Position numbers and translations under genes: made by a program. Below, piece after piece: positions 3,593-29,187 of a DNA stretch of 32,000 bases. The stretch covers positions 128,456 through 160,455 of the forward strand of contig CAZPUN010000023.1 of the NCBI GenBank assembly GCA_964589775.1, given 5' to 3'. This DNA comes from an uncultured archaeon (GTDB taxonomy: Archaea > Asgardarchaeota > Thorarchaeia > Thorarchaeales > CAZPUN01). Each line of letters starts with the position of its first letter. The first letter of the stretch is position 1. Under the pieces are notes generated by a model. That model was not told the origin of the DNA. It worked only from the letters and a program-made list of their open reading frames with translations, and searched no databases.

Positions 3593-3808
3593 CACTCTCT
3601 TTTTCTTTCTTATTATCTTATGAGGTCCTAAATTTTCAAAATTCAGTGATTTGATGTCCGGATCATTTGGTAACTTTCCAGTGAGCCGGTACAATGCATA
3701 ACTACGAACAAGTTTAATCTTATTTGCTATTTCATTTTCTTCGGATGCTTTTTGAAGTAGTTCTTGTTTCGGACCAAAAAGACCAATAATACGATTTAAT
3801 ATTCCCAT
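3587..3808 (-). CDS. Small hypothetical protein with N-terminal amphipathic helix and polybasic C-terminus
   Basis: 73-aa ORF filling an intergenic gap. N-terminus MGILNRIIGLFGPK, C-terminus IIRKKKRVL. Confidence 0.55.
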   Translation of the reverse strand: MGILNRIIGLFGPKQELLQKASEENEIANKIKLVRSYALYRLTGKLPNDPDIKSLNFENLGPHKIIRKKKRVL

Positions 3809-3931
3809 TTGTGATCACTGATTCCTTTTATTGATGTTTTCTATTTAACTTTTTATTTTTGTAATAATGAATTTTTATATATCCTTTAAATCCTATATTA
3901 TATTAGCCTAGTGAAGTTTGAGGTGTATATT

Positions 3932-4591: not shown

Positions 4592-4652
4592 TTTATTTAT
4601 AGGGGTCTGAGTAATACAAATTCCTATACTTTATTTTTTTAATATATATTGT

Positions 4653-4847
4653 ATGGATGGGATTGACTTGGAGCCTAGATTGGTGGAATACCTTAAAGAT
4701 AAAGAAATCGTGGCAATGGGGATTGTGAAACGAAAGTTTCCAGATATAAGCTCAAACCTAATTGCGACATATTTACGTAAAATGGGATTCAAAAAAACTA
4801 CAGACAAACTCTGGGAGCGAATAAAGCGAGACTTAAACGTAAATTAG
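4653..4847 (+). CDS. Small hypothetical protein, possible winged-helix
   Basis: 64-aa ORF in a gap. Three short helices then LRKMGFKK..LW, a pattern typical of small wH domains. Confidence 0.45.
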   Translation: MDGIDLEPRLVEYLKDKEIVAMGIVKRKFPDISSNLIATYLRKMGFKKTTDKLWERIKRDLNVN

Positions 4848-4923
4848 AAAAACAGAAAAGTATACATAGTATACTAATTGCTTAATTATAATAAATTAAG
4901 TTATCATAGGAGCTATAAATATC

Positions 4924-6303: not shown

Positions 6304-7652
6304 TATCCCATTTTTCTATTTTTTAGGATGTATTCTATAATATATGTCACCGCAATTAATAGTCCGCCTAATAAATAAAAATATCTGGATGGTATCATAA
6401 TTAATAAACTAAACGAAATAACCTTAATGAAGCCAATTATGGCTCCTGGAACGTTTGATTTGGCCATGTCTAAAGATGTTGGAAAATTAAATAATGCCCA
6501 AAACGGTACTAATGCTACCCAATAATATTTGTAACATCCCCGTGGCGAAAATAGATGTACAAAGATAAACATAATCATTGTTATGAATAATAATTTTCTA
6601 TAATATATTGGGTCTAGCATTTCGTCCTTTTTTATAATTAGCATAAAGAAGAATGAATTTAGGATTGTAATTAACAATAGAAAATTCGTACCTACTAATA
6701 TTGCAAGAATGATTGTAATATCTGGTGGGGCTCCTAATGCTATAAATGGTACTTCAAACTGTATTGGAACTGAATAATTTGGTAATTTTGTAATATCCGT
6801 ATAAATAAAGCCCGATGCTTTTGATATTATATCTGATATGTACTCGACATTTATGAAAATATATGGTGTGGATATAATCAAGACTACAGCTGCTAAAATG
6901 ATCATTGTTTTTAAGAATCTAAATACATCAATTTTATCATTATCTTTCTTAATTGCTGATGCGATTAATGGGAGAACAAGAAAGAATGCAATTTGTTTGC
7001 TCATTGCCGACAACCCAATAAAGACTGCCGCGATTCCATACCTCTCCTTTGTCATAAAATAAAATCCCATGAACCAAAAGAATACAAAAACTGGTGTATT
7101 TAGCCAAAGATATGTTGAGTAATAAAGATTGATCGGGTTGAATAATACACAGGATGCAGCGATTAACGCATATTTTTTATTATTAAATATATTCTGAGCG
7201 ATTCCGTAAACTGGTATTGCAATTAAAAAGTCAAAAGTTGCTAAAACCATTCCTATACTCCAAAATTGAGTTGGCAAAATTAGTTTGCCGAGCGTTATTA
7301 CATAAATATACATGGGGGGATAGAAATACCAAAGTTTATCCATACCTGAGCTGTACGGTATAGTTCCTTTTAAGAATGCATCGACCCATTTTACATAATA
7401 AAAGTCATAATCTGTATACCCTTCAAATTGAATATTTATAGTAAATCCAAAAAATGAGTATGTACCACTCCCTAGCCAAGGAAAGCCACTTTTTGTAATG
7501 TCTAATATTGCCATATTAAAAACATAGATGCGAACCGCTGCAGCTATTATCAAAATAATGGCAATTTCTCTATGATGTTTTATTATGTCTATGCTTCTCC
7601 TTACGTTTGAAATTAATAATTCTTTCATAAACTTTTTCGGTCCCATTCTCAT
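6282..7652 (-). CDS. Polytopic membrane glycosyltransferase, GT-C fold (GT87/DUF2029/PIG-M-like)
   Basis: About 11-12 TM segments. TDYDFY...G.IPY...YFYPP.Y, LFNP..LY, GLSAMSKQIAFFLVLP, YKYYWVALVPF. Confidence 0.7.
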   Translation of the reverse strand: MRMGPKKFMKELLISNVRRSIDIIKHHREIAIILIIAAAVRIYVFNMAILDITKSGFPWLGSGTYSFFGFTINIQFEGYTDYDFYYVKWVDAFLKGTIPYSSGMDKLWYFYPPMYIYVITLGKLILPTQFWSIGMVLATFDFLIAIPVYGIAQNIFNNKKYALIAASCVLFNPINLYYSTYLWLNTPVFVFFWFMGFYFMTKERYGIAAVFIGLSAMSKQIAFFLVLPLIASAIKKDNDKIDVFRFLKTMIILAAVVLIISTPYIFINVEYISDIISKASGFIYTDITKLPNYSVPIQFEVPFIALGAPPDITIILAILVGTNFLLLITILNSFFFMLIIKKDEMLDPIYYRKLLFITMIMFIFVHLFSPRGCYKYYWVALVPFWALFNFPTSLDMAKSNVPGAIIGFIKVISFSLLIMIPSRYFYLLGGLLIAVTYIIEYILKNRKMGYYVVEFC

Positions 7653-9739
7653 GTAAATTCAGCCTTTGCTCTTATAAGCTCTGCAACGCTTGCATCATCT
7701 TTCTTATCTATTTTTATTGTATTTAAGTTATCGAATTTTCCGGTATCTGTATGCGTAATCAGAAAAATCTGTTGGAATGAAGAATCATTCAGCAATGTTT
7801 CAATTACTGCATTGCGGCGTTTTTCGTCTAATTCTCCTAATGGTTCATCAAGGAGTACGCATCGTATTCGTGGTTGTTTTTGGGTACTGTTCTTCATAGG
7901 TCTTATTCTATTCATAGTTTTACTGATTCCTAATCTTAATGCAAGTCCTAGCGAAATCTTGTCTCCAAAACTCAATTCATCTATTGTTTTCTTACGCTTA
8001 TCGCGTTCATCGTATACTTCTATCTGTAATCCTTTTTTGTCTTCGGTTGCACTAATGTTTACGTTAACATATTGTCCCGCTGAAAACATCTTTATATAAT
8101 CAGAAGCTCGCTTACTGATCAATTTTAATAGTTTTCGTTCAAAAACATAGTTTGTAATAAACGGTTTTATAATGTAGTTTCTTATGTATTCAATATGTTC
8201 TATAATCCTTTCTAATTCCTCTTTTTCTTTCTTCATCTTTTTGGAATTTCTTAATTTTTCTTTCTTTTCCTCCAAAAGTTGAGATTCCTCATCAATATCT
8301 CGCTTTATTCGTTTAATATCGTCAAGTGTTCGTCTAATCTCATAGTCTATTTCCTGTATTTTCTTAATAAGTTCATCAATGGTCTTTACATCATATTTCT
8401 TTAAAATTTCTTCAATCGTATGTACATTGAACGTCATAAGAGCTTGTTCTAATTCCTTTTCTTTTTGTTCAATTTTATTTTTCTGTAATTCTAAATCTTC
8501 ATAATTTTTTATACGGTCCTGCAATTTGGCTTTCTTTCTTTCAAGATCGCGTTGCCTTTGTTGTGCAGATCTCTTTTTATCTCTTGCAGTTTTAATCTTT
8601 TTATTGTATTTTATTATGAGCTCTTTATTTTCCTTAATTTCCTCTTTATATTCTTTTATTATTTTTTGAGCATGTTCTTCTGTTAGTTCTGAACCACATA
8701 CAGGGCATCGGTATTGTTTATCGCCGGTCTTTTCAATTAGACTGAATTTGTCAAGTTTATCGTTAAGCTGTTCGTTATTGGTTTTAGCGGTTTCCAATTT
8801 ACCAGCTAACATTTCGATTGTTGATTGTAATGCCTCAATTTCTGAGTTTATCTCTTCTATTTCTTTATCATATTTCTGTATTAGTTCCTTAACCTGTGAT
8901 ATATCCTCTATGTTATATTCCTGAAATAGTTGTTTAATCCTCTTTTTATCACGTTCATATATTCTTCTTTCTACTTCCACATTATTTTTCTTGAGCTTAA
9001 TCTCATTCATTTGTTCATATGTCGGATATTCTTTTTGTATAGTCTGTAATTCTTCGAGTCGCTTCTTTGAATTCTCTAATTCTTTTTTATTATCCTCAAG
9101 CCCCTTCTTAATTCGCGTTATATCTTTCTCAATTTCCTCCGGGGGTAAAAATTTAGAGTTTATATCCTGAAGTTTCATCTTGTATTGCTTATATTTTCCA
9201 AGTAAATATTTGTCAATCTTGTTAAAGATTTCAATACTATATATATCCTCAATTTGCTTTCGTAATGTGGATGGCGTAGCTACTGCTAGTGAAGTGACTT
9301 TTCCTTGTTGGACTAAAATCGTTTCTAGTGCTTGATTATCATCTATATGAAGGATTTCTTTCAAACGTCTTTTTACACTTGTGGATTTATCCGTGATTTT
9401 CTTTTGTATCAGTTTCCCATTGGATTTGATCATCTCATATAATACAACTGAAGGACCAAAGCCTTTGGAATATTTTCGTTCTATCTTGTACTGTACGTTC
9501 ATTACTTCGAAACTAATAGCAACACGTGTTTCTTGCTCTCCATAGTGAATTAGTTTATCATTTTTATATCGTCTTTCGGAACCCCATAATCCCCATATTA
9601 TGGCATCGAATAATGAACTCTTTCCCGTTGAATTTGGTCCGCGGATAACTGTTAGACCTTCTGGTAGAATACCGTGTTCGGGTAATTTGATGTTTTTAAA
9701 TGGTTTGAAATTTTGTATTTCAATCGTTAGAATTCTTAT
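7649..9739 (-). CDS. rad50: Rad50/SbcC SMC-like ATPase (about 696 aa, putative ATA start)
   Basis: The frame stays open 79 codons upstream of the track's ATG: (I)RILTIEIQNFKPF...GLTVIRGPNSTGKSSLFDAI (Walker A). Q-loop LVQQG, Zn hook CPVC, signature LSFGDK, Walker B/D-loop LLDEPLGELD, H-loop LITH. Confidence 0.92.
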   Translation of the reverse strand: MRILTIEIQNFKPFKNIKLPEHGILPEGLTVIRGPNSTGKSSLFDAIIWGLWGSERRYKNDKLIHYGEQETRVAISFEVMNVQYKIERKYSKGFGPSVVLYEMIKSNGKLIQKKITDKSTSVKRRLKEILHIDDNQALETILVQQGKVTSLAVATPSTLRKQIEDIYSIEIFNKIDKYLLGKYKQYKMKLQDINSKFLPPEEIEKDITRIKKGLEDNKKELENSKKRLEELQTIQKEYPTYEQMNEIKLKKNNVEVERRIYERDKKRIKQLFQEYNIEDISQVKELIQKYDKEIEEINSEIEALQSTIEMLAGKLETAKTNNEQLNDKLDKFSLIEKTGDKQYRCPVCGSELTEEHAQKIIKEYKEEIKENKELIIKYNKKIKTARDKKRSAQQRQRDLERKKAKLQDRIKNYEDLELQKNKIEQKEKELEQALMTFNVHTIEEILKKYDVKTIDELIKKIQEIDYEIRRTLDDIKRIKRDIDEESQLLEEKKEKLRNSKKMKKEKEELERIIEHIEYIRNYIIKPFITNYVFERKLLKLISKRASDYIKMFSAGQYVNVNISATEDKKGLQIEVYDERDKRKKTIDELSFGDKISLGLALRLGISKTMNRIRPMKNSTQKQPRIRCVLLDEPLGELDEKRRNAVIETLLNDSSFQQIFLITHTDTGKFDNLNTIKIDKKDDASVAELIRAKAEFT

Positions 9740-9740
9740 T

Positions 9741-10994
9741 TTACTCTCCCCCTAATATTTCGTTTAATGCGTCTGTAATTAGTTCGACCAAAAAGTCTTC
9801 ATTATATTCTTCAGGAATTGTAAGCTCTGATATGAATTCTCGGACTTCCTCTTCTGGGTCCTCAATTAAATAATCTGTATCTTCTGTTGGATTTATTATA
9901 TCGCCCATATCTTCTTTATATACCTCGTAGTCCCATGTAAATTGTACAATATTATATTCGTCTGATTTCAAAATATCTGTTACATAATAACTCAAACGTG
10001 ATTCTATTTCCCAAGATTTTGTAAGGCTTGTTTTTCCTTCAATTTTAATTTTCAGGCGTGCTGCAGTTTGAGGGTCAAAGGGTGCTTTCAGTCCAAGTTG
10101 TTCTAATATCTTCTCGATTCGGTTCAATATATTTTCTGCAATATCTTTATTCGTTATTTCAATCTCTTTGACATACATTGGTCTTTGAGTCGGAATTATT
10201 ATCTTTTCCACAATTGGTTTCTTGCCCTTTTCTGCATTTACTAATAGTATTCCTTTTTCATGTTTATATTCATCAAATCGCCATTTTTCTATTGAACCTG
10301 CGTAATATCCATTTGCTGTATACTGGTGCATGTGATGGTCATGTCCCAATGCTAAATAATCATAATTATGTTGCTTAATCTCAGGTGGTAGTGTTTCATC
10401 TAATTCCATTCCATGCGCAACAGCAATCGATGTTTTAGTTCCCGGTTTTTGCTGCGTTAATATCCATTGTTTATATATTTCACGTAGTTGTGGATTTTGT
10501 AGAGTGTCTCGCGATACATATGGAAATGCAAAAACTTCGAAATCATCAAATTCGAATTTTAGTGGTTTCCGTTTATTTAATGCATCTTTAAGATCCACAT
10601 AAGTTGCTATGTATATTTCTGGGAATGCATACTTAAATGATGAAAGTAATGATGCATCAATTCCCTTGTATAATCCATGATTGCCTTCAATAATTATTAG
10701 GGGCTTGCCTACTTTTTTGAAGTATTTTTCAAAAGTATCAAATGCGATTTCCCTTGCAACTTCACTAACCGGATACGGATTACGTTCCCATGGTGCATCG
10801 AATAAGTCTCCAGAATGAACTACAACATCATATTTATCTTTCATCTCAATTATTTTGTCAAATACTCTCTGGAATTGCTTATAGAAATCATCCTCAACCC
10901 ATCGTGATCGTAATGTAACTGCCCAGCCATCTCTGACGCCATTCCGCTCTTTATGCCCTAAATGTGTATCTGATAAGTGAATTAATCTAACCAT
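9741..10994 (-). CDS. mre11: Mre11/SbcD nuclease
   Basis: Phosphoesterase motifs HLSDTHLG, HSGDLFD, EGNHG, VAHG, YLALGHDH, YAGSIE. Adjacent to rad50. Confidence 0.92.
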   Translation of the reverse strand: MVRLIHLSDTHLGHKERNGVRDGWAVTLRSRWVEDDFYKQFQRVFDKIIEMKDKYDVVVHSGDLFDAPWERNPYPVSEVAREIAFDTFEKYFKKVGKPLIIIEGNHGLYKGIDASLLSSFKYAFPEIYIATYVDLKDALNKRKPLKFEFDDFEVFAFPYVSRDTLQNPQLREIYKQWILTQQKPGTKTSIAVAHGMELDETLPPEIKQHNYDYLALGHDHHMHQYTANGYYAGSIEKWRFDEYKHEKGILLVNAEKGKKPIVEKIIIPTQRPMYVKEIEITNKDIAENILNRIEKILEQLGLKAPFDPQTAARLKIKIEGKTSLTKSWEIESRLSYYVTDILKSDEYNIVQFTWDYEVYKEDMGDIINPTEDTDYLIEDPEEEVREFISELTIPEEYNEDFLVELITDALNEILGGE

Positions 10995-11006
10995 AAAACT
11001 TCCCCA

Positions 11007-12848
11007 TTAAAATTGAACATCTGGTTCATTATTATCTGTTAGTTCAAAATTATTTAACTCTTGTTGTATCATTTCAAATCTGTCTGGGAATCTAGGAACA
11101 TTAAATGGTAATGGTGTACTGCGATAAGATGCTGTAAGTATTCCATGCCCAACTTCAAGGGTATTATATTCTTCAGTAAATCCCGATAATGGTGCGCTTG
11201 CACTTTCTATTGCCGCACGTGCTTCTCTTTCATTGCCTAATCTTAAAAAGAACTGTGTATTTATTTGTGATAATATATCTGCATCTATTGTGCTCACCTG
11301 CTGGCTAATCACAACTAAACCTATACCAAACTTACGGCCTTGTCTAGAAATGTCTTTGAATAATGAACTTTGCCCTAATATTTCAGAATTCAAAATTTGT
11401 GGGGCTTCTTCAATTGTAATCAAGATAATCGGTAATGTTCGAATTTCTCTTAAAGTGTTATTTGATTCCCGATATATCTTCAGTGCTTTAGGTCTAAAAT
11501 TATCCCAAAACTTTGCAGTCAGTCCCATTTTCGCTTTGTTTGTAAATGAGTCTATGGAATCTGAACTTGCTAATGCTTGCCTTAAATTAAAAAGAATTCT
11601 TGCGACAATGGTTGTTACTAAGAATTGTTCATGTACTGACAAAAGTGATGTATTTATATCAATGATTCTTCCACTTTCTAATGCTTCAATGATTTGTGGT
11701 AATATCGATTCTTGAACTGGAATGTCCTTGAATATTCGTGACCTGCGCAGGAAATATAATCTTCTCTGTACTGCATTATGAGTTTGTTTTGTCTCGCCCT
11801 CTATAGGGTCATTATTGTTTAGAATCTCATTAATCCAATTATCTCCGAAAATTCCATATGCTCGATTCATATACGCTATTTGTAATGGATTTAATGAAAG
11901 GATAGATATGATATCCTTTGGCAGGATCTCTGTCCATGCTATTTGTAATTTACGACCATAATTTTTTAATTCATGTGGCATTCTTTCAGTTGAAGCTGTG
12001 AGATAGAAAAAGTCTCCAATTACATTATTTCGATCATTTGAGCTCATTTCGTTTACAATATGTGCAATTCCTCTTCGATCTTCATCAGTTCCGGATCCCA
12101 ATGCATATTCATCATGTGGATCAATTATCAAACTTCCAATTCTCGGAATATTAATCGTAGATGATTTAAGCGATCTAAAGTTCGACAGAATCATAGATGA
12201 AATTAGAACTTGCATCAAATTGCTTTTTCCAGCACCAGTTGTTCCAAATATTCCCATATGTGTTGCTAGATTTCGGACTGGTAAATTCATTTCTACATTT
12301 AGAACCGATTCTCCGGAAACTAGGTTTCCAAAATAAAGTTCGCCTGCAATCTGGGTCCCTAACAAATCACGAATAAAATCATCACTTATGCCCGCTTGCG
12401 GTACATATACTCGTGCGAGATGGTTTGGTATTCTACGTGGGCGTTTGAATTCCCATTTTCTTTTATTTATGTTGTATTCAGAGTATCCAATGAAGCTTCC
12501 CCTTATATCTAAAATCAAATATTGATTTGCATCTACAAAATAAGTATCGTTCCTTCTAAGAAGATCTGTAGCAATATCTTCAAGATTTTTTATGTATGTG
12601 ATACTAGGTGAAATTGAAATTGCTCTGAAGAAAAACACTCGCTCTATGCCAATATCTTCATCCTTTGATGTTCTAATATAACTTGGAATAATAAATATTT
12701 CACCAATACTTGAATCATATAAATTCCCGATTACTTGCATCATAGATTGGTCTCCGGATGCAAGCCTTCCGAAATAGTATCCTAATTCATCTTGGTGAAG
12801 TCTTAATTCGGGACCTAAATCTTGTTGGATATACGTGTTGTCTGACAT
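11007..12848 (-). CDS. herA: HerA bipolar helicase/translocase (FtsK-HerA ATPase)
   Basis: THMGIFGTTGAGKSN, IIDPHDEY, Walker B IEEAP, ISRQGRKFGIGLVVISQ, ILSQINTQFFLRL. Confidence 0.92.
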   Translation of the reverse strand: MSDNTYIQQDLGPELRLHQDELGYYFGRLASGDQSMMQVIGNLYDSSIGEIFIIPSYIRTSKDEDIGIERVFFFRAISISPSITYIKNLEDIATDLLRRNDTYFVDANQYLILDIRGSFIGYSEYNINKRKWEFKRPRRIPNHLARVYVPQAGISDDFIRDLLGTQIAGELYFGNLVSGESVLNVEMNLPVRNLATHMGIFGTTGAGKSNLMQVLISSMILSNFRSLKSSTINIPRIGSLIIDPHDEYALGSGTDEDRRGIAHIVNEMSSNDRNNVIGDFFYLTASTERMPHELKNYGRKLQIAWTEILPKDIISILSLNPLQIAYMNRAYGIFGDNWINEILNNNDPIEGETKQTHNAVQRRLYFLRRSRIFKDIPVQESILPQIIEALESGRIIDINTSLLSVHEQFLVTTIVARILFNLRQALASSDSIDSFTNKAKMGLTAKFWDNFRPKALKIYRESNNTLREIRTLPIILITIEEAPQILNSEILGQSSLFKDISRQGRKFGIGLVVISQQVSTIDADILSQINTQFFLRLGNEREARAAIESASAPLSGFTEEYNTLEVGHGILTASYRSTPLPFNVPRFPDRFEMIQQELNNFELTDNNEPDVQF

Positions 12849-12863
12849 GATTTTTATCCTCCC

Positions 12864-14171
12864 TCATCTAATATGTATGAGCTCTCGTTGATTTAAAAAC
12901 AGATTTGAGTTAAATCCGAGTCCGGTTGCAATTTCAATTAGCATATTATATAATATGCGTTCAGTATCTCGTGATATCTTACAATTATTGTGAGCAACTG
13001 CAAGTGGAGCTGGATATCCTACCCAATATATACCTCGCGACATGAAATCTAAATCTTGGAATATTTGATGTTCATTCTCATGCAATGTGTTAATATCTTC
13101 ATCATAAATATTTTCTCGCCACCATAACGCATCGAAATCAACTCGTAATGTTGGCTTGTTTGGATCAAGCTGGACTAAATACGGAACTGTTAATGGTGGT
13201 GGGATATATCTGCGATTTTCTAAAATTCTAAGGCCTTGCTCGCTTGGTATTCCTCCCGGCAGTCGAATATACCATCTGGAATTATTGCCAAAAATCTCAT
13301 TTGCAATTGCTATAGCTTCATTTGTAAACGGAATTGTATGTGTTTTTGAGACCGCCATAACTATTACATTGTGGTCTCTCGCTGTTTTTAGTATATCTCT
13401 TAATAAATATCCAATTATGTCCGTGGGTAGCATAGTTGTTGGATCATATTTAAAGCTTAATGAACCATCTAGTAGCATATATCGTAAATTGCTACCTTCA
13501 ACTATTGCTCTCTTTGCGATTCCTAATTCTCCAATTCGCATTGAAGTTGAAAATAGATTTGCGGCTGAAATTGTAATTCCTTCAATTAGCATATCTTCAT
13601 TAAATAACGGTTTATTCTCTATATTATAGTGTTTTTTCATTTCTTCATAATATGTATTGATAATTTTTTGAAAATCTGCAGCTGTTGGTTCTTCAATTCG
13701 GTTGTTTGTATCATCATATACAGGATAATATTCAATTAATTGTTCATGAATATATCTAATAGGTTCTCCATCATCTTGGCTAATCCATTTTGTTTCTAGA
13801 TGGCCTTTACTAAAAAAGTTAGGATTTTCTTCTTTTGATACATTATGGAACAAGTTTCGTTCATTTGTTCCCGTATTATGTACCGCTAAATAATAACTTT
13901 CAACAATTATATCAATATCTTCAATTGTGACCAGTGGGTATACACCAGAGCCATCTACAGCTGCAATATTAAAATCATCTGGTTTTCCGAGTTCATTTGT
14001 GTATTTATGAGAAATCTTTAGTGGTTCGATTTTTTGGATTAATTCATTCATAATGCGTTCGCGGTCTAGTTCAAATCTTTTCTTGTTTTGCTCTCGTGTC
14101 CGCCTAATATCCAATAATGTTGCAGTAATTTGTCGTCTGAACTCATTTTGAAAAATTCTTATTAGTGACAT
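12864..14171 (-). CDS. nurA: NurA 5'-3' nuclease
   Basis: IAAVDGS, LLDGSL, VMAVSKT, GYPAPLAVAHNNCKI. First gene of the herA-mre11-rad50 run. Confidence 0.88.
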   Translation of the reverse strand: MSLIRIFQNEFRRQITATLLDIRRTREQNKKRFELDRERIMNELIQKIEPLKISHKYTNELGKPDDFNIAAVDGSGVYPLVTIEDIDIIVESYYLAVHNTGTNERNLFHNVSKEENPNFFSKGHLETKWISQDDGEPIRYIHEQLIEYYPVYDDTNNRIEEPTAADFQKIINTYYEEMKKHYNIENKPLFNEDMLIEGITISAANLFSTSMRIGELGIAKRAIVEGSNLRYMLLDGSLSFKYDPTTMLPTDIIGYLLRDILKTARDHNVIVMAVSKTHTIPFTNEAIAIANEIFGNNSRWYIRLPGGIPSEQGLRILENRRYIPPPLTVPYLVQLDPNKPTLRVDFDALWWRENIYDEDINTLHENEHQIFQDLDFMSRGIYWVGYPAPLAVAHNNCKISRDTERILYNMLIEIATGLGFNSNLFLNQRELIHIR

Positions 14172-21759: not shown

Positions 21760-22006
21760 GTGACACACTTCCAGATCTTTTATTTTGTTAATTTATTCTT
21801 TTATTTTTAAAATAATATTGTATATCTTGTGACCATTTACATCTTAAGAACGTTGCGACTTGTTCTACCATGAAAAAAAGCTAGTTTTTTATATAGAATT
21901 TCATATATATTATATTTAAAATAGCAATATGCATTTAAGTAGCGTTTATAATTATTTAAAATTGAATTATTTTATTCAAAAATTAAAAATTTAATGGGTG
22001 GCCACA

Positions 22007-22879
22007 TTGATAAGAGAATTACACGTCTTTGATAAAGAAAAATTGGTCTTCAAGGATTCAATAGTTCCTACAAAAGGAATTGATTTGGAAAAGATTCTTT
22101 ACGTTACAGTAAGTTCTGCATTTCAGCAAAAGGAATGGCGAATTGATAGTCTTGAAATTTCACGCTATAGATTTACTTACACAAATGCCCATGGGTATGC
22201 TTTTGTTATGACGTCTGATAGGGCCGCCACAAAAGAGAAAATTGAAGAAGCTTTTATGAAGGTAATTACTGAATTTGTCAAGATTTGCATGGATTCAAAA
22301 TGCAATGATGAAGATACAAAAGAAGACTTTAAGGATGCTTTTAGACGGATTGCAGGACGATTGCCCATTAAATTCTGTCTTGCAGGACATGGTGGAACTG
22401 GAAAAACTACATTGTTAGAACTTGCTATTCTGCCTACAAAAGGCCCCCCTCAGAAATATGTTCCTACATTCTTTGGCGATAAAGCCATGTTAAAATCAGA
22501 TTTTGATCCATATGTACTTTCACTATTTGACCTTGGTGGTCAGGATCGATTTGTACAAGAATGGAGCAAAATAATTCGAGCGAGTAGTGGCGTAATTGTT
22601 GTAAGTGATTCTACACCCGCAAATATATCTTGGCTACGAAGAGTTGCATTGCCAGTTCTCAAAGCGAATTTGCCATATTCTCGTGCAATTGCTCTTGCGA
22701 ATAAGCAAGATCTGCCCGGTGCATTATCCCCTGAAGAAGTAGAGCGCCGTCTCGGAATTCCCGCATATCCTATGATTGCGAATCGGAAAGAAAATCGCGA
22801 TAAATGGCTGAAATTGCTAAAGGATTTATTGTTCGAGAATTTAAGATTTATAGTTATAGGAGATGTTCCCGATGAGTGA
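22007..22879 (+). CDS. Longin domain fused to Arf-related small GTPase
   Basis: N-terminal about 115 aa has a longin pattern (IRELHVF...YRFTYTNAHGYAFVMTSD + helix). G1 GHGGTGKTT, G2 YVPT, G3 FDLGGQ, G4 ANKQDLPGA. Start TTG 22007 behind GGGTGG (GTG 21998 is the alternative). Confidence 0.88.
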   Translation: MIRELHVFDKEKLVFKDSIVPTKGIDLEKILYVTVSSAFQQKEWRIDSLEISRYRFTYTNAHGYAFVMTSDRAATKEKIEEAFMKVITEFVKICMDSKCNDEDTKEDFKDAFRRIAGRLPIKFCLAGHGGTGKTTLLELAILPTKGPPQKYVPTFFGDKAMLKSDFDPYVLSLFDLGGQDRFVQEWSKIIRASSGVIVVSDSTPANISWLRRVALPVLKANLPYSRAIALANKQDLPGALSPEEVERRLGIPAYPMIANRKENRDKWLKLLKDLLFENLRFIVIGDVPDE

Positions 22880-23438
22880 TGAATTGTCTTCAGTGATTTC
22901 AAAAATAGAAGACGCAACAAGAGAGTTACGACAGAAAATCACAGTGGAGCAGGATACAGAAATTAATAAAAAATTAGATAATATCATTGAGGACATTTCT
23001 ACACTTAAGATTACTATTAATCGTATAGCTTCGACCATTGCAACAATATCTACAAAAAATGACCAAATACTTAGTATTCTCTCAAGTAAAAAGATTCCTG
23101 TTGTTGAAGAAAAGCCATCTGAGCCTGAAATGCCAGAAATTCATATTGAAGAGTCTTCTATGGCCAAAAACGTTGAGGCAGCTACTGAAGAAGTATCTGA
23201 AGTATCCGAAGTCTCAGAACTTTCAGAAAAAGAACGTACAAGGCTTGAACAAGAACTTAGAACATTAGAAAGCAATCGTGATATTCTACAAGAGCGATTA
23301 AATGAATTATATGAATTGAGTCTTTCAGATCCAACATCTGAAAGCGAATATGAAGCTGAAATTGAGGAAAAAGAATCATCATTAAAAGAAACGAAAAAGA
23401 AAATACGATCAATTAAAAGAAAGCTTGGGAGGTCGTAA
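22872..23438 (+). CDS. Coiled-coil / acidic linker / C-terminal helical-hairpin protein
   Basis: SD AGGAGA then ATG 22872, overlapping the GTPase stop. Heptads, E-rich linker, hairpin LNEL...DPTSESEY. Confidence 0.75.
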   Translation: MSDELSSVISKIEDATRELRQKITVEQDTEINKKLDNIIEDISTLKITINRIASTIATISTKNDQILSILSSKKIPVVEEKPSEPEMPEIHIEESSMAKNVEAATEEVSEVSEVSELSEKERTRLEQELRTLESNRDILQERLNELYELSLSDPTSESEYEAEIEEKESSLKETKKKIRSIKRKLGRS

Positions 23439-23440
23439 AG

Positions 23441-23776
23441 TTGGGTATTTTTGATTCATTGTTAAGAAAGAAATACAAGAAGAAAATGGTTCATATTGAG
23501 CCCAAAGAATCCGAAGTTGCCCCTAAAAAGGAAGAAGTAACTAGCAGTGAAGAGATTGATACTCTTCTAAAGCAATATCAAGAGCTAATTAAAAAGCGTG
23601 ATGCATTAATAAAAGATCGCCAAGAATTAACCGAAAAGCTAGATCGCGGTGAAGTCACGCCTACCGAATTTAGAAAGATTTTGATAGAGAAGATAAAAGA
23701 AAACACTCAAATCTCAATGCAAATTCGGGATATTTCTGCAAAATTAGCTAAATTAGGACATCCTGTAGTTGGATAA
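23441..23776 (+). CDS. Small protein with N-terminal amphipathic/basic helix and steadiness-box-like helical hairpin
   Basis: TTG start with SD GGAGGT. MGIFDSLLRKKYKKK; LTEKLDRGEVTPTEFRKIL. Confidence 0.75.
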   Translation: MGIFDSLLRKKYKKKMVHIEPKESEVAPKKEEVTSSEEIDTLLKQYQELIKKRDALIKDRQELTEKLDRGEVTPTEFRKILIEKIKENTQISMQIRDISAKLAKLGHPVVG

Positions 23777-23795
23777 CACATAGGTGAAAATCAAT

Positions 23796-25004
23796 ATGAG
23801 CGCAGACAAGAGTTCCGATACGATTCAGCGAATTTCAGAGAAGTTTTCCTCAATGATAATTAATGAGGAGGTCATGTTTCAAAAAACGCAAGACCGTTTA
23901 AATAACAGTCTTGAGATTCTTAGTGGTGCAATTCAAAATCAAGGTGACTTTATAGAATCTCAGAAAAAAGCTATCAAGGATACATTATCAAAAAGATTAA
24001 TGACTGAAGTAGGACTCGGTGTGTTTGCATCAAAAACAATCAAGGTTGTAAATGAGGAAATCGAGCGACATCTATCCGCCAAAGAAATTATCAATCCATT
24101 TGAAAATATAATTCATCAAAATCGTGAAGAAATATCTGAAATTCTTGAAAAGACAAAAAATAATATTGTCTCTTTAACTAATACCACTAAAGATCAAATT
24201 CTAAATATAATTTCAACACTACTTGAACATAATAGTTCGCTAAAGTCTGAGATTACTGAGAAAAACAATGAATTAAAGAAAGCTAATGAATCCATTGCAA
24301 ATCTAAAGGCGACTATTGTATCACAAAAACAAGAAATCGAGAGTCTTACAAAAAAGACAGTAGATTTGCAGAATGAAATAAAATTACTAGAATCCCAGAT
24401 CACAAAATTAAGTCAGAAAAACATACAGCTCATGACTTCATTAGAAAATACCAAACAAGCCCTTAAAGAAGCTCAAAAATTGATTGAAAGTATGGGTGCG
24501 GGTGAAATAAAGGATGCTCTTCAACGTGAAATCAAGAAAAATGAAGAGCTTAAATCTGAATTGGCAGACCTCGATAAGAAACACACAGATTTATCTCAAA
24601 AGTATTCCAAATTGCTTGAAGAGAATACCAAGCTGAAAGACAAACTAAATATCGCGACCATTGAAATTGAAAATAAGAGTAAAGCGATCAGTGAACTTGA
24701 AAAAGATGTACGTGATAAAACCAGTCGAATAGAGCAGTTAGAACAAGAGATTCGTGATTTTCAAGAACGCTGGAACCGGTTGTATAATCTTGCAGAACAT
24801 GAACTTAATTTCAGAATTTACTTTATGATCGAAGATAAAGGCGGCGATTGGGTGGAATTAAATCAAATTTCTAAGGCTCTTGGTATTCCACGTGCTCGTG
24901 TGGCTGCACTTATTAAGCAGTTTGCAGATAGTGGTCTAGTAGAAATATCTGGAAACAAAGCTCGTGCAGTTAAATTTATACGACCTGAAGGAAGCTTTGT
25001 ATGA
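23796..25004 (+). CDS. Long coiled-coil protein with C-terminal winged-helix domain
   Basis: SD AGGTGA then ATG 23796. About 190 aa of continuous heptads; C-terminus FRIYFMIEDKGG.WVELNQISKALGI....VAALIKQFADSGLVEI. Confidence 0.8.
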   Translation: MSADKSSDTIQRISEKFSSMIINEEVMFQKTQDRLNNSLEILSGAIQNQGDFIESQKKAIKDTLSKRLMTEVGLGVFASKTIKVVNEEIERHLSAKEIINPFENIIHQNREEISEILEKTKNNIVSLTNTTKDQILNIISTLLEHNSSLKSEITEKNNELKKANESIANLKATIVSQKQEIESLTKKTVDLQNEIKLLESQITKLSQKNIQLMTSLENTKQALKEAQKLIESMGAGEIKDALQREIKKNEELKSELADLDKKHTDLSQKYSKLLEENTKLKDKLNIATIEIENKSKAISELEKDVRDKTSRIEQLEQEIRDFQERWNRLYNLAEHELNFRIYFMIEDKGGDWVELNQISKALGIPRARVAALIKQFADSGLVEISGNKARAVKFIRPEGSFV

Positions 25005-25014
25005 GGGGATAAAA

Positions 25015-26496
25015 ATGCCAGCAGGAATTGCATTATGTTCATGGAATGAAAAAGAAGGATTAAATACACACTTTTACTTTCCAAGTACTTTAAAAATTCC
25101 AACTGTGTTGGTATCTGAACTTCTAACTAGCGAAGAAGAAAATAAAGAAACCGTAAAAATAATTCAATCAGGACTATCTGAACTTAAGGGCCTTGCTATT
25201 CCAATAGATTTAGAAACGAATCTTTATTTAATATTGTTTTTAAATAATGATGAAAGCCCTGAAACTTACCGAAAGTCATTTCTGAAGGAATTTGAAGGAA
25301 TTCCTAAGAAGTATCTATCTCTGCATGCGATTGAACGAAAGAGCAATCAAGAGAAAATCAAACAAATCATTGAGGAAATTTTCTGGGATCTCACATCACT
25401 TGAAAATGATGCAGTGTTGGCACAAAAATTATATGATGAGATTTTTTCAAACAGTCTTCAGTTTGTGCAAATCCTGACTGGCATTACTGTCGAGGGGTCT
25501 GAACTCGTTTATGGTGTTCACATAACGAATCATTCTGGAATGAAAATTGAGCAAATTACATTCCAATTAGATTTACCTGAGGGAATTATCCGTGCAGATC
25601 CAAAATTCAATCCAAACGATGCAGACCTTCAAAAATTAGACCCTAATGAAACTCATGTTTTTATGTTTAATTTGCGATATCGTGGAATGCCTCTTGGAAC
25701 GATAAAAGGCTATGTCTCCCTAAAGATGACTGATGGGATTTATGTTTTCGAGTTACCTCCCGCTCGCTTGAGCGCTTATAATCTAATTGAATACCCTCAA
25801 AATGAAATTGAACCCGATTATACAAATATTTCTTACAACTTTCTAATAACTGATAGTACTGACATAAGTCGAATTATTGAGGGCTTAATTCTAAGATTGG
25901 ATACTGAAATTGTTGATGAAGTTCACGCAAAGCATGAAAATCTAAATGTTGATATGTGGATCTTGCAAGGAAACTGCGCTTATGGTTTCTCAGTTGAAAT
26001 TGGTATCTTTGCATTCACTGATATGAATAAAACAATATCCCTTATTCAAGTTGCAGGCGGCTCTTACGAATTTAACAGGTCCATAGGTTCTGATATTATT
26101 AATGCAATACGTGCAGCAGCTGCTCTGGATGCAAAAAGTATACTGTCTTCAGAAGAACGATTTGTCGATAATCTCTCTATGATTCTAATTCTATATTTGT
26201 ATGTACAAATAATTAATAATTTACCTCCTGAAGAACTTATTGTTAAATTAAAAGATATAACTCATAAATTACGTGCTCTAAAATTAATTGCTTTAGAAGA
26301 TCCAAAATATGAAAATTTCATACTAGCACCTACCGAACCTATAAAACAAAACATCGAACTAATTATTCGTGAAATTTGGCGATATTCATATGAAACCAAT
26401 GAGGAGATTAATTTTATTGATTATCTTGAAAAAATCTCCACAATATTGAAAATATCTGATAAAGCATATTCATCATTACGAGAAGTTTTTGAATAG
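25015..26496 (+). CDS. uDENN/longin-like domain + coatomer/adaptin appendage-like (Ig ear + platform) domain + helical tail
   Basis: SD GAGGGG then ATG 25015. GIALCSWNEKEG.....YFP; VHITNHSG..IEQITFQL.LP...L.P.E..VF.F.L...G.IKG.V; platform-like alpha/beta segment ending IQVAGGS...SIG..I. Confidence 0.6.
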   Translation: MPAGIALCSWNEKEGLNTHFYFPSTLKIPTVLVSELLTSEEENKETVKIIQSGLSELKGLAIPIDLETNLYLILFLNNDESPETYRKSFLKEFEGIPKKYLSLHAIERKSNQEKIKQIIEEIFWDLTSLENDAVLAQKLYDEIFSNSLQFVQILTGITVEGSELVYGVHITNHSGMKIEQITFQLDLPEGIIRADPKFNPNDADLQKLDPNETHVFMFNLRYRGMPLGTIKGYVSLKMTDGIYVFELPPARLSAYNLIEYPQNEIEPDYTNISYNFLITDSTDISRIIEGLILRLDTEIVDEVHAKHENLNVDMWILQGNCAYGFSVEIGIFAFTDMNKTISLIQVAGGSYEFNRSIGSDIINAIRAAAALDAKSILSSEERFVDNLSMILILYLYVQIINNLPPEELIVKLKDITHKLRALKLIALEDPKYENFILAPTEPIKQNIELIIREIWRYSYETNEEINFIDYLEKISTILKISDKAYSSLREVFE

Positions 26497-26512
26497 CTGG
26501 GGGAATTTCTAA

Positions 26513-26854
26513 TTGTGGAGACGGCGTAAAAGTGATGATAAAAACAAAAAAGAGGTTCAAGAAGTATTAAAATATTTGTCAGATCTTACAAGTTCATGGT
26601 ATTCATGGTTAGTTATTATTCTATTATTTAAGAAGAAGGGAACCGCACATATTGATGACGTCCGCGAAGTTATGATGAAAGAAGGTTTTGCTCCAACAGT
26701 GTTGAATAGTATAATTCAAGATAATATCATTAGACTACGTGGTGTTGTCAGTTTTGATGGGACCATTCTAAAATTAACTCGAGATACTCATGTCATAAGA
26801 TGGTTAAGAAAGCAATTGCCGAATGTTTCGCGCCGCTTGTCTTTTCCACAATAA
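26513..26854 (+). CDS. Small hypothetical protein, probable winged-helix
   Basis: TTG start with SD GGGGGA, 16 nt after the previous stop. IILLFKKKGTAHIDDV...LRGVVSFDGTILKLT fits a helix-helix-helix-wing pattern. Confidence 0.65.
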   Translation: MWRRRKSDDKNKKEVQEVLKYLSDLTSSWYSWLVIILLFKKKGTAHIDDVREVMMKEGFAPTVLNSIIQDNIIRLRGVVSFDGTILKLTRDTHVIRWLRKQLPNVSRRLSFPQ

Positions 26855-26903: not shown

Positions 26904-26975
26904 TGTGGGCCTGGCGTTTAACCAGGCCCGTGATGGCAACGATCCCAATGCATTGGGTCGAATGTTGTGTTGAGG
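26904..26975 (+). ncRNA. Candidate structured RNA (two GC-rich hairpins) downstream of the GTPase operon
   Basis: GGGCCTGG/CCAGGCCC 8-bp stem (26907-26929) and CCCAATGCATTGGG core (26944-26957), both extendable by G-U pairs on the + strand. Confidence 0.3.
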
Positions 26976-27100: not shown

Positions 27101-27463
27101 ATGGGAAAAGTGAAAGAGTCTCAGTCTGTAAATGAAGATCTAAAACAAGAATTACTTGGTCGATTCAATAAAGAGAGATTTGGTCTTCATAATCGTGAGC
27201 TGACTGTCATGACGCGTCTCTCGGCAGAGGATGTGAAAGTTCTAGATGCATTAGTTGAACTTGAGGTTTTCAAGAGTAGGTCCGAGGCCGTAGCATTTTT
27301 TGTACGTCGAATGATTCTTTCTCGCGAGCAAGAATTCAAAAAATTGACTGCACTTGTGGATGAAATTAAGCGCAGGAAATCCATGGCAATATCTACACTG
27401 ATTAAGGCGATAGAATCTGAAAAAGAAGAAGATGGAGAAAAAGCGGAAGACTCTGAAGACTAA
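27101..27463 (+). CDS. Ribbon-helix-helix (CopG/Arc/MetJ-like) DNA-binding protein with C-terminal coiled coil
   Basis: TVMTRLSAEDVKVLDALVELEVFKSRSEAVAFFVR. Start ATG 27101 behind GGAGTG; TATA-like TATTTAAG at about 27056. Confidence 0.82.
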   Translation: MGKVKESQSVNEDLKQELLGRFNKERFGLHNRELTVMTRLSAEDVKVLDALVELEVFKSRSEAVAFFVRRMILSREQEFKKLTALVDEIKRRKSMAISTLIKAIESEKEEDGEKAEDSED

Positions 27464-29187
27464 ATTATCTTAAATGCAGTAATTACGTATTGTTCTCCGC
27501 TAACATCAATTGTCGCATTGAATTTATTTCCGACCTGTGCAGATAGCAGTGCATACCAATCTTGTAATGGCATTGAACCTGGCCAGCCTTCTATGTATTT
27601 ATAAGTATCGTTATTAGTTTGTAGCACTATATGAGTAACTCCATTTTGGACATATGAGTAATATCCTGTAATATTTGCAATTAGATTTATAGTCTCTTGG
27701 ATCTGTGTTCCTCCAAATAATGCTATGTATTTCAGGCGTGCTGAGCGAACAAGATTCTCACCCGTAAGACCTCCTGTAGCTAACTCAAGAATTCTATTAT
27801 CTGATTTTGAAGCATCTACTAAAGCAAGTCCTGCAAGGCGTATCGTAATTGATGTACTTTCTTCACTACTGTACTCTTGCCAATAGACTGGAACATACCA
27901 TGTTAATTTGAAATCTCCAGGTGCTATTTCTACAGGATATAGCATTGGCATTGCGGCATAATAAAAGCCTGTTGCAGGTTTTGGTAATTCACTCTCGACG
28001 ACATCCATTGCAGTGATTCCACTGATTAAGTTCAGGTCTTTATAATCATAGTAATATACATGATTTCGCGAAATCTTGAATACGCCTGCAAGTGTTTTTT
28101 CACTTGAGACTGGATGTACAGCAACAATTGCATCGATTTCGTTAGTATCTGGATCTAAGATGTAACGTAAGTCCTCACTTATTTCAACGCGTTCTCGGGA
28201 GGGTGGGATTATCCATAGTAATCCTCCTGCAAATAAATCGAATCCGTCTCCACGTCGATAATCACCCCAACGTGAAATATCTCGTTCTAGAAATGGTTCT
28301 GCAAAAATTCGTTCTATGAATTCCGGTACATTGTCAATGCTATTATATTCCTTAATTGTACCATTTTCAAAATATACAATTGGCCCTAGCGGGTCTTCAG
28401 TAAGATCAAAATTCAGTCGTGTTCGTGTCAGTATATATGCAAGGTGTCCCAAATTATCAACTTCTACGTATGCTTGCTCATATAGAATACTTGTATCTGC
28501 TAAATAGTTTCTAAAGAATATATCATGATCCCAGAACAATCCTTCTCCTATTGGCATAGTTCGATTTATTTCAATAGGGTCTCTCGTAGGATCATTGGCA
28601 TCAATTATGAGAAATCCTTTCACATAATTTTCACTGAGCGTATTTGTTGAAACAATCTCACAAGCCCAGGAAAGTCGTCCATTATATACCATAATGTGGG
28701 CTGAATTTACAAATACATTACTACCATATGAGCTGAGATGTTGTTGTGCGATATTTGTTGCATATTCTGGAGTAATCAGTCGAACCATATTGTCTGGAAT
28801 TGTATTATTGTATATCATTCCCGATTTATATGTTACAAAACTATTGAATCGCTCCGCATTTGTAAGACCACTAGTCCATAGACCGATTCCTGAAAAAAGT
28901 AAAGGCGCAACAATTAGAACAAAGAATACCAATCCTTGCATTCTTTTGAAATGAAGAATATCTGTGAATAATACTCTTGTAAATGACCATATTATTACGA
29001 ATCCTACAATATACCATACCAGAGGTAACATGAGAAAAATTGATAATATTAACCATGCTGTAATGCCTTGGATTAATGCAAACATAAATATTTTGAATTT
29101 TGGCGGTAATGGTAGAATTATATAGGGTTTTTTAGGTGTAAGTAAGAATAAAAAGATCGTAACTATCAATAGCAATCCGACGCTCAT
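27460..29187 (-). CDS. Hypothetical membrane protein (about 4 N-terminal TM helices, large extracytoplasmic domain)
   Basis: Hydrophobic N-terminal 105 aa, then a soluble Y/W/G-rich beta domain (YNGRLSW, GFLIIDA, VPEFIERIF..WG.Y..G, MPMLY...TWYVP). Confidence 0.75.
   Translation of the reverse strand: MSVGLLLIVTIFLFLLTPKKPYIILPLPPKFKIFMFALIQGITAWLILSIFLMLPLVWYIVGFVIIWSFTRVLFTDILHFKRMQGLVFFVLIVAPLLFSGIGLWTSGLTNAERFNSFVTYKSGMIYNNTIPDNMVRLITPEYATNIAQQHLSSYGSNVFVNSAHIMVYNGRLSWACEIVSTNTLSENYVKGFLIIDANDPTRDPIEINRTMPIGEGLFWDHDIFFRNYLADTSILYEQAYVEVDNLGHLAYILTRTRLNFDLTEDPLGPIVYFENGTIKEYNSIDNVPEFIERIFAEPFLERDISRWGDYRRGDGFDLFAGGLLWIIPPSRERVEISEDLRYILDPDTNEIDAIVAVHPVSSEKTLAGVFKISRNHVYYYDYKDLNLISGITAMDVVESELPKPATGFYYAAMPMLYPVEIAPGDFKLTWYVPVYWQEYSSEESTSITIRLAGLALVDASKSDNRILELATGGLTGENLVRSARLKYIALFGGTQIQETINLIANITGYYSYVQNGVTHIVLQTNNDTYKYIEGWPGSMPLQDWYALLSAQVGNKFNATIDVSGEQYVITAFKII

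Follow-up and report, generated by a model that had tools for sequence, protein, structure and literature searches.

The subject here is a run of six genes from an uncultured Asgard archaeon of the order Thorarchaeales, contained in a 32,000-nucleotide (nt) window (GenBank assembly GCA_964589775.1, contig CAZPUN010000023.1, positions 128,456 to 160,455 of the forward strand). The window belongs to contig C23 of a 2.16-Mb, 97%-complete genome (G000), the sole member of its family among GTDB species representatives. All six genes, labeled g1 to g6, are on the + strand at window positions 22007-26854; initial open reading frame (ORF) calls spanned 21998-26854, the starts being refined with homologue alignments and Shine-Dalgarno (SD)-like motifs. 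At the head of the series is g1 (22007-22879), which encodes a longin domain followed by an Arf-like GTPase and has a TTG start, the residue from which its homologues align. The helical protein with an acidic linker from g2 (22863 or 22872 to 23438) is 188-191 amino acids (aa) long, the start having GGAG ahead of it, and g3 (23441-23776, preceded by GGAGGT) specifies a 111-aa candidate membrane tether. A coiled coil and a winged helix are encoded by g4 (23796-25004, with AGGTGA ahead of the start, a longer GTG-initiated ORF from 23784 being less likely). The 493-aa product of g5 (25015-26496, preceded by GAGGGG) combines a longin, an appendage-like part and a helical bundle; homologues give no support to its alternative reading as a 510-aa GTG-initiated ORF from 24964. 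Last comes g6 (26513-26854, preceded by GGGGGA), for a 113-aa winged-helix protein. The junctions are, in order, -17, 2, 19, 10 and 16 nt. Upstream, a spacer of 238 nt (21769-22006; 20.6% GC, with TATA-like runs) is shared divergently between g1 and the threonyl-tRNA synthetase gene, thrS, on the - strand, and presumably holds the promoter. The first-pass annotation had pointed to six tightly packed co-directional ORFs, each with an SD, behind an AT-rich divergent region; spacing and composition are as it described, with SD-like motifs listed for g2 to g6.

The closest relative, L001 (NCBI GCA_053940065.1), permits the coding status of the genes to be assessed. Amino-acid identity to L001 is 92, 65, 74, 65, 76 and 91% for g1 to g6 in order, and in all six the proportion of nonsynonymous sites changed (pN) is far below that of synonymous sites (pS), the latter being near saturation, with nonsynonymous to synonymous rate ratios (dN/dS) of 0.016-0.17. 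All six are therefore real, constrained coding genes, and they form one operon. No transmembrane segment is detectable by the Kyte-Doolittle method in any of the six proteins. The nearest sampled relatives beyond the lineage are 77 Thorarchaeaceae genomes of the same order, whose proteins carry the NCBI label Candidatus Thorarchaeota; together with G000 and 223 other Asgard genomes they make up the 301 genomes surveyed.

The G domain of g1 matches the Pfam Arf family (PF00025) with 43.2 bits, the cut-off being 22.3, at E 3.9e-11, and its best matches among Protein Data Bank (PDB) sequences are Arf1 and Arf2, with Arf1 the closest solved relative. The G1 (GHGGTGKTT), G3 (DLGGQ, including the catalytic Gln) and G4 (NKQD) motifs are invariant across 46 homologues, and R56 and R58 are invariant Arg residues of the longin in the same alignment. 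An AlphaFold model built from that alignment has a mean predicted local distance difference test (pLDDT) value of 79.8 and a predicted template modeling score (pTM) of 0.81. Its N-terminal domain, residues 1 to about 120 in the numbering of the 293-aa GTG-initiated ORF, has the order beta-beta-alpha-beta-beta-beta-alpha-alpha and superposes on solved longins, which bears out the earlier description of g1 as a longin-Arf-like GTPase; a profile search with the g1 longin against PDB sequences returned non-significant matches only. The whole model resembles ESM Atlas clusters of Thorarchaeota and Promethearchaeota at template modeling (TM) scores of 0.81-0.82. More than 200 full-length homologues have 53-60% identity, and orthologues (E < 1e-100) are present in 38 Thorarchaeaceae genomes. 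The N-terminal amphipathic helix of Arf proteins, which is usually myristoylated, is absent, the N-terminus of g1 being the 120-aa longin; an MG-hydrophobic-polybasic start comparable to the Arf N-terminus is on a separate protein, g3. As a side point, residues 16-92 of g1 (about 22043-22273) have phmmer matches at E 0.5-1.5 to the switch I, interswitch and switch II region of Arf1 and Arf3, with PT.G...E in common, probably by chance.

In 12 of 12 aligned sequences g3 begins MG[LI][FL]D followed by a polybasic run, with M1, G2, D5 and R9 invariant; after this come a linker and, at the C-terminus, a conserved helical hairpin. Every Thorarchaeaceae locus examined has a homologue (E 1e-15 to 1e-25), the minimal gene set described below included. 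From the sequence of this N-terminus, g3 would be the candidate membrane tether. The membrane-type N-terminal helix assigned earlier to one of the helical-hairpin proteins corresponds to the short MGIFDSLLRKKYKKK start of g3. The companion proposal, that g2 and g3 are paralogues, found no support (hhalign E 0.15). By Pfam and NCBIfam g2 has only sub-threshold matches of coiled-coil type, and it is the positional orthologue of a 185-190 aa protein in the longer version of the Thorarchaeal operon, with which it aligns collinearly at 21-27% identity (alignment A7) and with marginal BLAST values (3e-4 to 0.04).

The long coiled coil and winged helix proposed for g4 stand. The coiled coil of about 250 residues draws SMC and Rad50 coiled-coil matches, and residues 347-401, in the winged helix-turn-helix at about 340-400, match TrmB and MarR_2, each at 6e-4, with TrmB, MarR_2 and HTH_24 matches spanning E 6e-4 to 0.013, all below Pfam cut-offs. 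Also conserved are GLGVF near residues 77-81 and a core of the form RW...FKxYF...GIP (alignment A6), and the winged-helix part has matches of 1e-11 to 1e-14 in other Asgard families, to short proteins encoded next to g1 homologues. For g6, which belongs to no family by sequence and has the lowest dN/dS of the six (0.016 against L001), an ESM Atlas model with pTM 0.71 has TM scores of 0.65 to DUF7344, 0.56 to MarR and 0.52 to ArsR proteins (0.50-0.65 overall), as expected for the small winged helix it had been called. A three-helix bundle with a beta wing is present both in g6 and at the C-terminus of g4, though profile comparison (E 0.48) gives no relationship between the two. Among the operon proteins of the window there is neither a DUF742 match nor a kinase by Pfam and NCBIfam.

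The product of g5 is the most adaptor-like and the hardest to model. No Pfam or NCBIfam family, including Alpha_adaptinC2 and Coatomer_b_Cpla, matches it at E up to 1. Its AlphaFold2 (AF2) model, from three sequences, is weak overall (pLDDT 50), with residues 1-130 at about 70 and in longin topology; this portion superposes on known longins. Chains of GATOR1 and C9orf72-SMCR8 are among its top structural matches, and GATOR1, Mon1-Ccz1, FLCN and C9orf72-SMCR8 match it no better and no worse than adaptins do; the best longin matches of g1 and g5 alike include delta-COP and the mu and sigma adaptins. The motif W10-N11-x3-G15-L16 is invariant in the three g5 sequences. Compared with the motif in the beta1-beta2 loop of longins that act as GTPase-activating proteins (GAPs), WD and/or GP, the W and G are kept, D is replaced by N and P by L. 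The longin continues into an Ig sandwich and a platform-like subdomain and not into a DENN module. The longin fold and the ear sandwich proposed at first hold in these models and the uDENN-type label does not, there being neither the WD/GP motif nor a DENN module.

The sandwich, at about residues 148-258, superposes on the sandwich of adaptor ears. With the whole g5 model the best Foldseek matches are the complete appendages of alpha-adaptin, beta2-adaptin, COPI and gamma-COP (E 1e-5 to 1e-3, about 240 columns). An ESM Atlas model (pLDDT 0.63) places residues 131-370, with 222-235 aligned, against the C-terminal regions of beta-COP and alpha-adaptin, platform Pfam families included. The platform-like subdomain itself (about 270-370) has an AF2 pLDDT of about 35 and yields no rigid superposition. 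The sandwich-plus-platform assignment is made because the two low-confidence models agree, and on these models residues of about 148-370 would be an adaptin/COPI-appendage-like module. Residues 373-493 are predicted to be a helical bundle, with no assigned family. They show no Pfam VPS28 match, and hhalign with the Vps28 of G000 gives E 0.13. Within this order the Pfam model has low sensitivity, finding one canonical Vps28 in G000 and almost nothing in the other genomes.

Relatives of g5 are few. A HMMER search of 1.84 billion representative proteins retrieved g5 itself only, and a word-index search found two, with 76% and 66% identity, both between g4 and g6. No paralogue of residues 131-493 was found in the same genome. 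Weak matches in three Thorarchaeaceae genomes (E about 1e-4) were to nothing more than the terminal Ig sandwich of a small membrane protein. At 0.07, the dN/dS of g5 against L001 is that of a constrained gene.

How far the six genes travel together is informative. In ten Thorarchaeaceae loci (L009, L010, L023-L030) the order is g1-g2-g3-g4-g6 in nine and g1-g3-g6 in one, none having g5. The distance from the end of g1 to the start of g6 is 2.3-2.6 kb in 25 genomes (the long form) and 0.4-0.5 kb in nine (g1-g3-g6); 3.67 kb is seen in G000 only. In Thorarchaeaceae, 34 loci had g1 and g6 assignable to the same contig, and g5 is missing from all of them. The g6 profile finds one copy in 43 of the 77 Thorarchaeaceae genomes (15 of 16 genera) and in G000, with a single marginal match (E 8.5e-4) in the 223 other Asgard genomes, so that apart from this match it is confined to Thorarchaeales; g6 and g1 orthologues occur in essentially the same genomes. 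Thus g1, g2, g3, g4 and g6 constitute an order-wide conserved operon with g1-g3-g6 as its minimal form. The place of g5 between g4 and g6 is stable in L001 and in L041, the other relative of this lineage; as g5 is in the three lineage members only and absent elsewhere, it is a lineage-specific insertion into an older operon, and the family-level lineage of the window is the only one to have it. This divides what had been read as a six-gene set: the survey across Asgard genomes upholds five genes as conserved throughout the order and removes g5, which has no homologues outside its own lineage, and no HEAT/ARM trunk accompanies the genes.

A second longin-type partner of g1-type GTPases is encoded outside the window. 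The A3 family (alignments A3 and A8) comprises proteins of about 350-400 aa, with an N-terminal domain followed by winged helices rather than a DENN module, and is present in 219 of the 301 Asgard genomes, often in several copies. In distant Asgard families, g1 homologues (30-39% identity over their full length) are preceded by an A3 gene for a 350-375-aa protein, often with stop/start overlap; in families f7, f8, f13 and f15, and likewise in short-form Thorarchaeaceae, A3 is the immediate upstream neighbor of the g1 gene. The A3 family is the older conserved partner of g1-type GTPases and their commonest neighbor across Asgard archaea. In long-form genomes A3 is about 7 kb upstream of g1, behind a gene for a giant type-I surface protein of 2,360 aa with a signal peptide, one transmembrane helix and a 240-aa acidic cytoplasmic tail. 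The A3 orthologue of G000 is on another contig, C55, directly after a homologous giant gene.

The N-terminal domain of A3 has invariant P2, W10, D11, G15 and P23 and the motif WD-x3-G[P/T]. Thorarchaeal orthologues read W-D-D-E-L-G-P, which is the spacing of C9orf72 W33-D34...G38-P39. These C9orf72 residues are needed for the Arf-GAP activity of C9orf72-SMCR8 and are diagnostic of longin GAP complexes, and they also occur in an Asgard longin class whose GTPase partners are unknown (PMC12290439). The g5 N-terminus aligns collinearly with that of the A3 family (hhalign E 7e-4 over 85 columns) and is a weakly related, diverged copy of the A3 N-terminal domain. Profile comparison gives no relation of g1 to A3. 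The C-terminal two thirds of A3 are tandem winged helices, with matches to TrmB at 4e-9 and ArsR-type HlyU at 5e-6; a profile search against PDB sequences found ArsR/HlyU winged helices only, and database names of A3 proteins are hypothetical or ArsR/HxlR regulators.

The explanation that seems best, held with middling confidence, is a membrane-proximal small-G-protein switch with a paired-longin regulator, to which an ear-bearing subunit has been added in this lineage, and not a coat. The g1 G domain, with its catalytic Gln and NKQD intact, would cycle nucleotide on a platform of two paired longins, the one fused to it and one from a second protein. Across most Asgard lineages that second protein would be the A3-family protein encoded beside g1-type genes; in the window's lineage, where the A3 orthologue is on another contig, g5 would take that place in the operon. 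The heterodimer of g1 and g5 longins that the first-pass annotation proposed can be inferred on this basis, a second longin-type protein being the commonest neighbor of g1-type GTPases. A complex prediction for full-length g1 and residues 1-135 of g5 scored 0.00, which under the rule of the tool counts neither for nor against the pair. The MG[LI]FD and polybasic N-terminus of g3 would provide in trans what Arf proteins have in cis, a membrane anchor, and g4 and g6 may be scaffold, effector or exchange-factor-like partners, in parallel with the DUF742 guanine nucleotide exchange factor (GEF) of actinobacterial conservons. The ear of g5 may add a peptide-docking hub, ear and helical bundle both being potential docking surfaces. 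There is precedent: longin or roadblock pairs regulate a G domain in C9orf72-SMCR8, FLCN-FNIP, GATOR1, Mon1-Ccz1 and MglB (PMC10933270, PMC12290439), and in actinobacterial conservons the winged-helix DUF742 protein is the GEF and the roadblock protein the GAP (PMC11343762, PMC13621833).

Several observations weigh against such a switch. At the positions that matter for GAP activity g5 has N where C9orf72 has an essential D and L where GAP longins have P, and a C9orf72-like GAP role of g5 itself is therefore doubtful; the g1 longin has no GP motif. No conserved arginine-finger candidate was identified in A3 or g5, the alignment of their first 110 residues having no invariant Arg. Pfam gives no match to the N-terminal 150 aa of seven A3 members, and their domain would be a longin by its similarity to the g5 N-terminus. 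The g5 AF2 model is poor, with rigid superposition aligning the sandwich half of the ear only. A search for the operon failed to find it in about 44% of the species genomes of Thorarchaeaceae, and it is therefore dispensable. Among sequencing runs one strong DNA match was found, from a hydrothermal-vent metagenome that may be the source, and no RNA run. Finally, the winged helices of g4, g6 and A3 resemble TrmB, MarR and ArsR/HlyU, so a transcriptional output is possible.

That last point leads to a rather unlikely alternative in which the locus is a GTPase-controlled transcriptional or otherwise DNA-linked regulator: the winged helices of g4, g6 and A3 would bind DNA, the ribbon-helix-helix protein g7 just downstream would be part of the output, and GTPase and longin would be the sensor. 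The TrmB/MarR-type helix-turn-helix (HTH) models that match the g4 C-terminus, the similarity of the g6 model to MarR, ArsR and DUF7344 winged helices, the A3 matches and database names given above, and the conservation of g7 are all in keeping with it, as is the control of gene expression by conservons, the nearest bacterial analogue (PMC8510531). However, no HTH match of g4 reaches its Pfam cut-off and g6 lacks any at the sequence level; protein contacts are a frequent function of winged helices in GTPase systems, as in the DUF742 GEF (PMC11343762) or in ESCRT-II-like proteins (bioRxiv 10.1101/2024.02.06.579148), and neither the invariant membrane-type N-terminus of g3 nor the 250-residue coiled coil of g4 has an obvious role in a simple repressor. 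A decidedly improbable option is that g5 is a functionally unrelated passenger, a shuffled longin-ear protein using the operon promoter and making no contact with g1-g4 or g6. Its absence from every other operon copy examined would fit, and the domain architectures of Asgard eukaryotic signature proteins are indeed shuffled and lineage-specific (bioRxiv 10.1101/2020.10.19.343400). Yet three lineage members, with identities down to 66%, preserve its position, its 10- and 16-nt junctions and its SD-like motif, and its dN/dS is 0.07; the domain at its N-terminus is of the kind that g1-type GTPases have as their standard partner in the genome, and it is in exactly this lineage that the A3 orthologue has gone from the g1 neighborhood.

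The proposal with which the locus came to attention was a proto-coat or adaptor. All six proteins would build one Arf-recruited adaptor, the longins of g1 and g5 standing in for the sigma/mu or zeta/delta pairs; accessory factors would be brought in by the ear of g5, and membrane attachment and a rod would come from g2-g4. We consider it very unlikely. In its favor are the Arf-like G domain of g1, the longin folds in g1 and g5 with delta-COP and the mu and sigma adaptins among their best matches, and the ear-like module, where adaptin and COPI appendages are top in Foldseek and the Atlas model concurs; moreover, the giant type-I surface protein adjoining the operon of relatives, with its long acidic cytoplasmic tail, may be cargo. 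Against this, g5, the sole adaptor-like subunit, is limited to one small lineage and missing from the conserved operon, and its longin scores GATOR1, Mon1-Ccz1, FLCN and C9orf72-SMCR8 equally with adaptins, with an N-terminal motif that ties it to the A3 family and not to sigma/mu. By Pfam and NCBIfam the operon encodes no HEAT/ARM trunk, no mu-homology domain and no partner resembling a clathrin or COPI cage. The most adaptor-like gene being a young lineage-specific domain shuffle, the operon is therefore not readable as the relic of a proto-coat, and that interpretation over-reads a young insertion.

A more daring reading, to which we give a slim chance, would make g1, g3 and g5 a prokaryotic cargo adaptor: with GTP-bound g1 anchored by g3 and its longin paired with that of g5, the ear and the helical bundle of g5 would serve to collect partners, or else the acidic cytoplasmic tail of the giant surface protein whose gene is linked to the module in relatives. 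If so, the longin and ear logic of the AP and COPI systems would have been assembled independently, and driven by an Arf-like protein, in an archaeon. In a less radical variant of this idea, A3/g5-type longins may be the cognate GAP subunits of longin-fused Arf-like GTPases across Asgard archaea; these longins would then be the prokaryotic root of the C9orf72-SMCR8, FLCN and GATOR1 complexes.

Parts of the locus have clear counterparts in the literature. Longin-Arf-like fusions go back to the first Lokiarchaeum re-analysis (Klinger et al. 2016, as cited in PMC4917890, which quotes five of them) and appear again in Liu et al. (bioRxiv 10.1101/2020.10.19.343400) and Tran et al. 2024 (PMC10933270). 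They have the architecture of g1, an N-terminal longin and then an Arf/Rag-like G domain; these papers cover the fusion and not this operon. In MK-D1, GTPase genes are generally outside operons with longin or roadblock genes (Tran et al., PMC10933270), whereas here the GTPase gene is in a conserved operon with g3 and g6 and in most lineages has an adjacent second longin-type gene. Asgard proteins that join a longin, an adaptin appendage and Vps28-C are also on record (Makarova et al. 2024, bioRxiv 10.1101/2024.02.06.579148; Liu et al.). They are like g5 in the longin, the Ig sandwich with a platform-like part and the closing helical bundle, of about 120 aa in g5, but for that of g5 neither Pfam nor the hhalign value given above yields a link to Vps28-C, and g5 is in a GTPase operon, not an ESCRT locus. 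The first-pass annotation had not recognized the gene set as a described system, which is right in part: both fusions are in print, and a limited literature search found no account of this operon, of the g3 or g6 families or of the A3-g1 pairing.

Among eukaryotic and bacterial systems, C9orf72-SMCR8-WDR41, FLCN-FNIP and the NPRL2-NPRL3 pair of GATOR1 likewise have two longin proteins facing an Arf/Rag-type GTPase (PMC12290439); A3 has WD-x3-G-[P/T] with C9orf72 spacing at the beta1-beta2 loop, of which g5 keeps W and G. The differences are that here there is no DENN module, no arginine finger was found and one longin is fused to the GTPase. With adaptor protein (AP) clathrin adaptors and the F-subcomplex of COPI the commonality is an Arf-type GTPase, longins (sigma/mu, zeta/delta) and a predicted sandwich-plus-platform ear (alpha, beta2, gamma-COP, beta-COP), but two longin-bearing proteins only are present, a HEAT/ARM trunk and a mu-homology domain are lacking, the ear is on a longin protein rather than a large subunit, and the ear protein is outside the conserved set. 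MglA-MglB and the conservons (PMC13343842, PMC13621833, PMC11343762) also have an operon-encoded small GTPase, a regulator of the roadblock/longin superfamily and small winged-helix partners, and are similarly patchy in distribution and dispensable. The GTPase here is Arf-like and not MglA/Ras-like, and the operon has no DUF742 match and no counterpart of the conservon sensor histidine kinase; the locus is not a conservon, and the resemblance is functional. The signal recognition particle (SRP) receptor pairs the SRX longin of SR-alpha with Arf-like SR-beta, but the window operon lacks an SRP-type NG domain and a transmembrane anchor on the GTPase, and similarity to the receptor is no better than to other Arf-family members.

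The locus is accordingly best filed as a variant of already known Asgard GTPase/longin modules, both domain fusions having been described. Its interest is in the partners. Longin-fused Arf-like GTPases and ear proteins are counted as Asgard eukaryotic signature proteins with unknown partners, and genome layout rarely reveals those of the GTPases (Tran et al., PMC10933270). The operon and its relatives name testable candidates: the g1-g3-g6 core, an almost pan-Asgard A3 protein and, in one lineage, an ear-bearing replacement. They also bear on the question, raised in PMC12290439, of which Asgard GTPases the GP-motif longins act on.

Several features around the main genes deserve mention. In G000 and in long-form Thorarchaeaceae the A3 gene is always beside that for a giant type-I surface protein, whose acidic tail is 150-240 aa. 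On G000 contig C55 (L038) the two genes, at 8089-9252 and 9255-13670, are on the - strand and adjacent, as always; at L009, where they are just upstream of the g1 operon, they are at 513-1679 and 1680-8762, again adjacent. A paralogous module is on G000 contig C34 (L040), with co-directional genes for an A3-like protein (6925-8064), a 314-aa longin-GTPase (8188-9132), whose identity to a homologue of g1 from a different family is 35%, and a Rab-like GTPase of 184 aa (9450-10004). In the g1-type locus of a different Asgard family (L017, 7561-8472, - strand), a 303-aa protein has a DUF742-like winged helix that at 26.6 bits (5.5e-6) falls just short of the cut-off, 27, together with a faint match to NPR2 (E 0.012), hints of a conservon-like or NPRL2-like component.

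Past the g6 stop by 52 nt, a GC-rich hairpin (26907-26929, + strand) with a perfect 9-bp stem, GGGCCTGGC...GCCAGGCCC, may mark the end of the operon. A T-run precedes it and a G-rich stretch follows, and in a 55-nt context it folds with -19.4 kcal/mol; an Rfam search of the window, hairpin included, returned no family. Scanning for sigma-70 promoters and intrinsic terminators, models that are not applicable to archaea, gave counts equal to the shuffled expectation. After a spacer of about 250 nt comes g7 (27101-27463, + strand), probably with its own promoter; its ribbon-helix-helix-like product matches the C-terminal region of NCBIfam AbmR at 1.3e-7, far below cut-off. In Thorarchaeaceae, where g7 is also kept downstream of the operon, an OB_ChsH2_C zinc-ribbon gene is between them. 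Four Thorarchaeaceae loci (L025, 7411-7977; L027, 3954-4547, L028, 5904-6458 and L030, 4003-4557, these three on the - strand) encode a 184-197-aa protein 1.5-2 kb downstream of the operon; a search with it as query found no counterpart in G000. It starts MP[IV]LEYL[ML][IV]YT, which we take to be reminiscent of small longin proteins, making it a candidate for that fold. The gene after g7 in the window, at 27460-29187 on the - strand, encodes a protein of 575 aa that starts with hydrophobic helices and matches neither a Pfam nor an NCBIfam family; it has 80% identity to its counterpart in a relative and adjoins the operon in all three members of the lineage.

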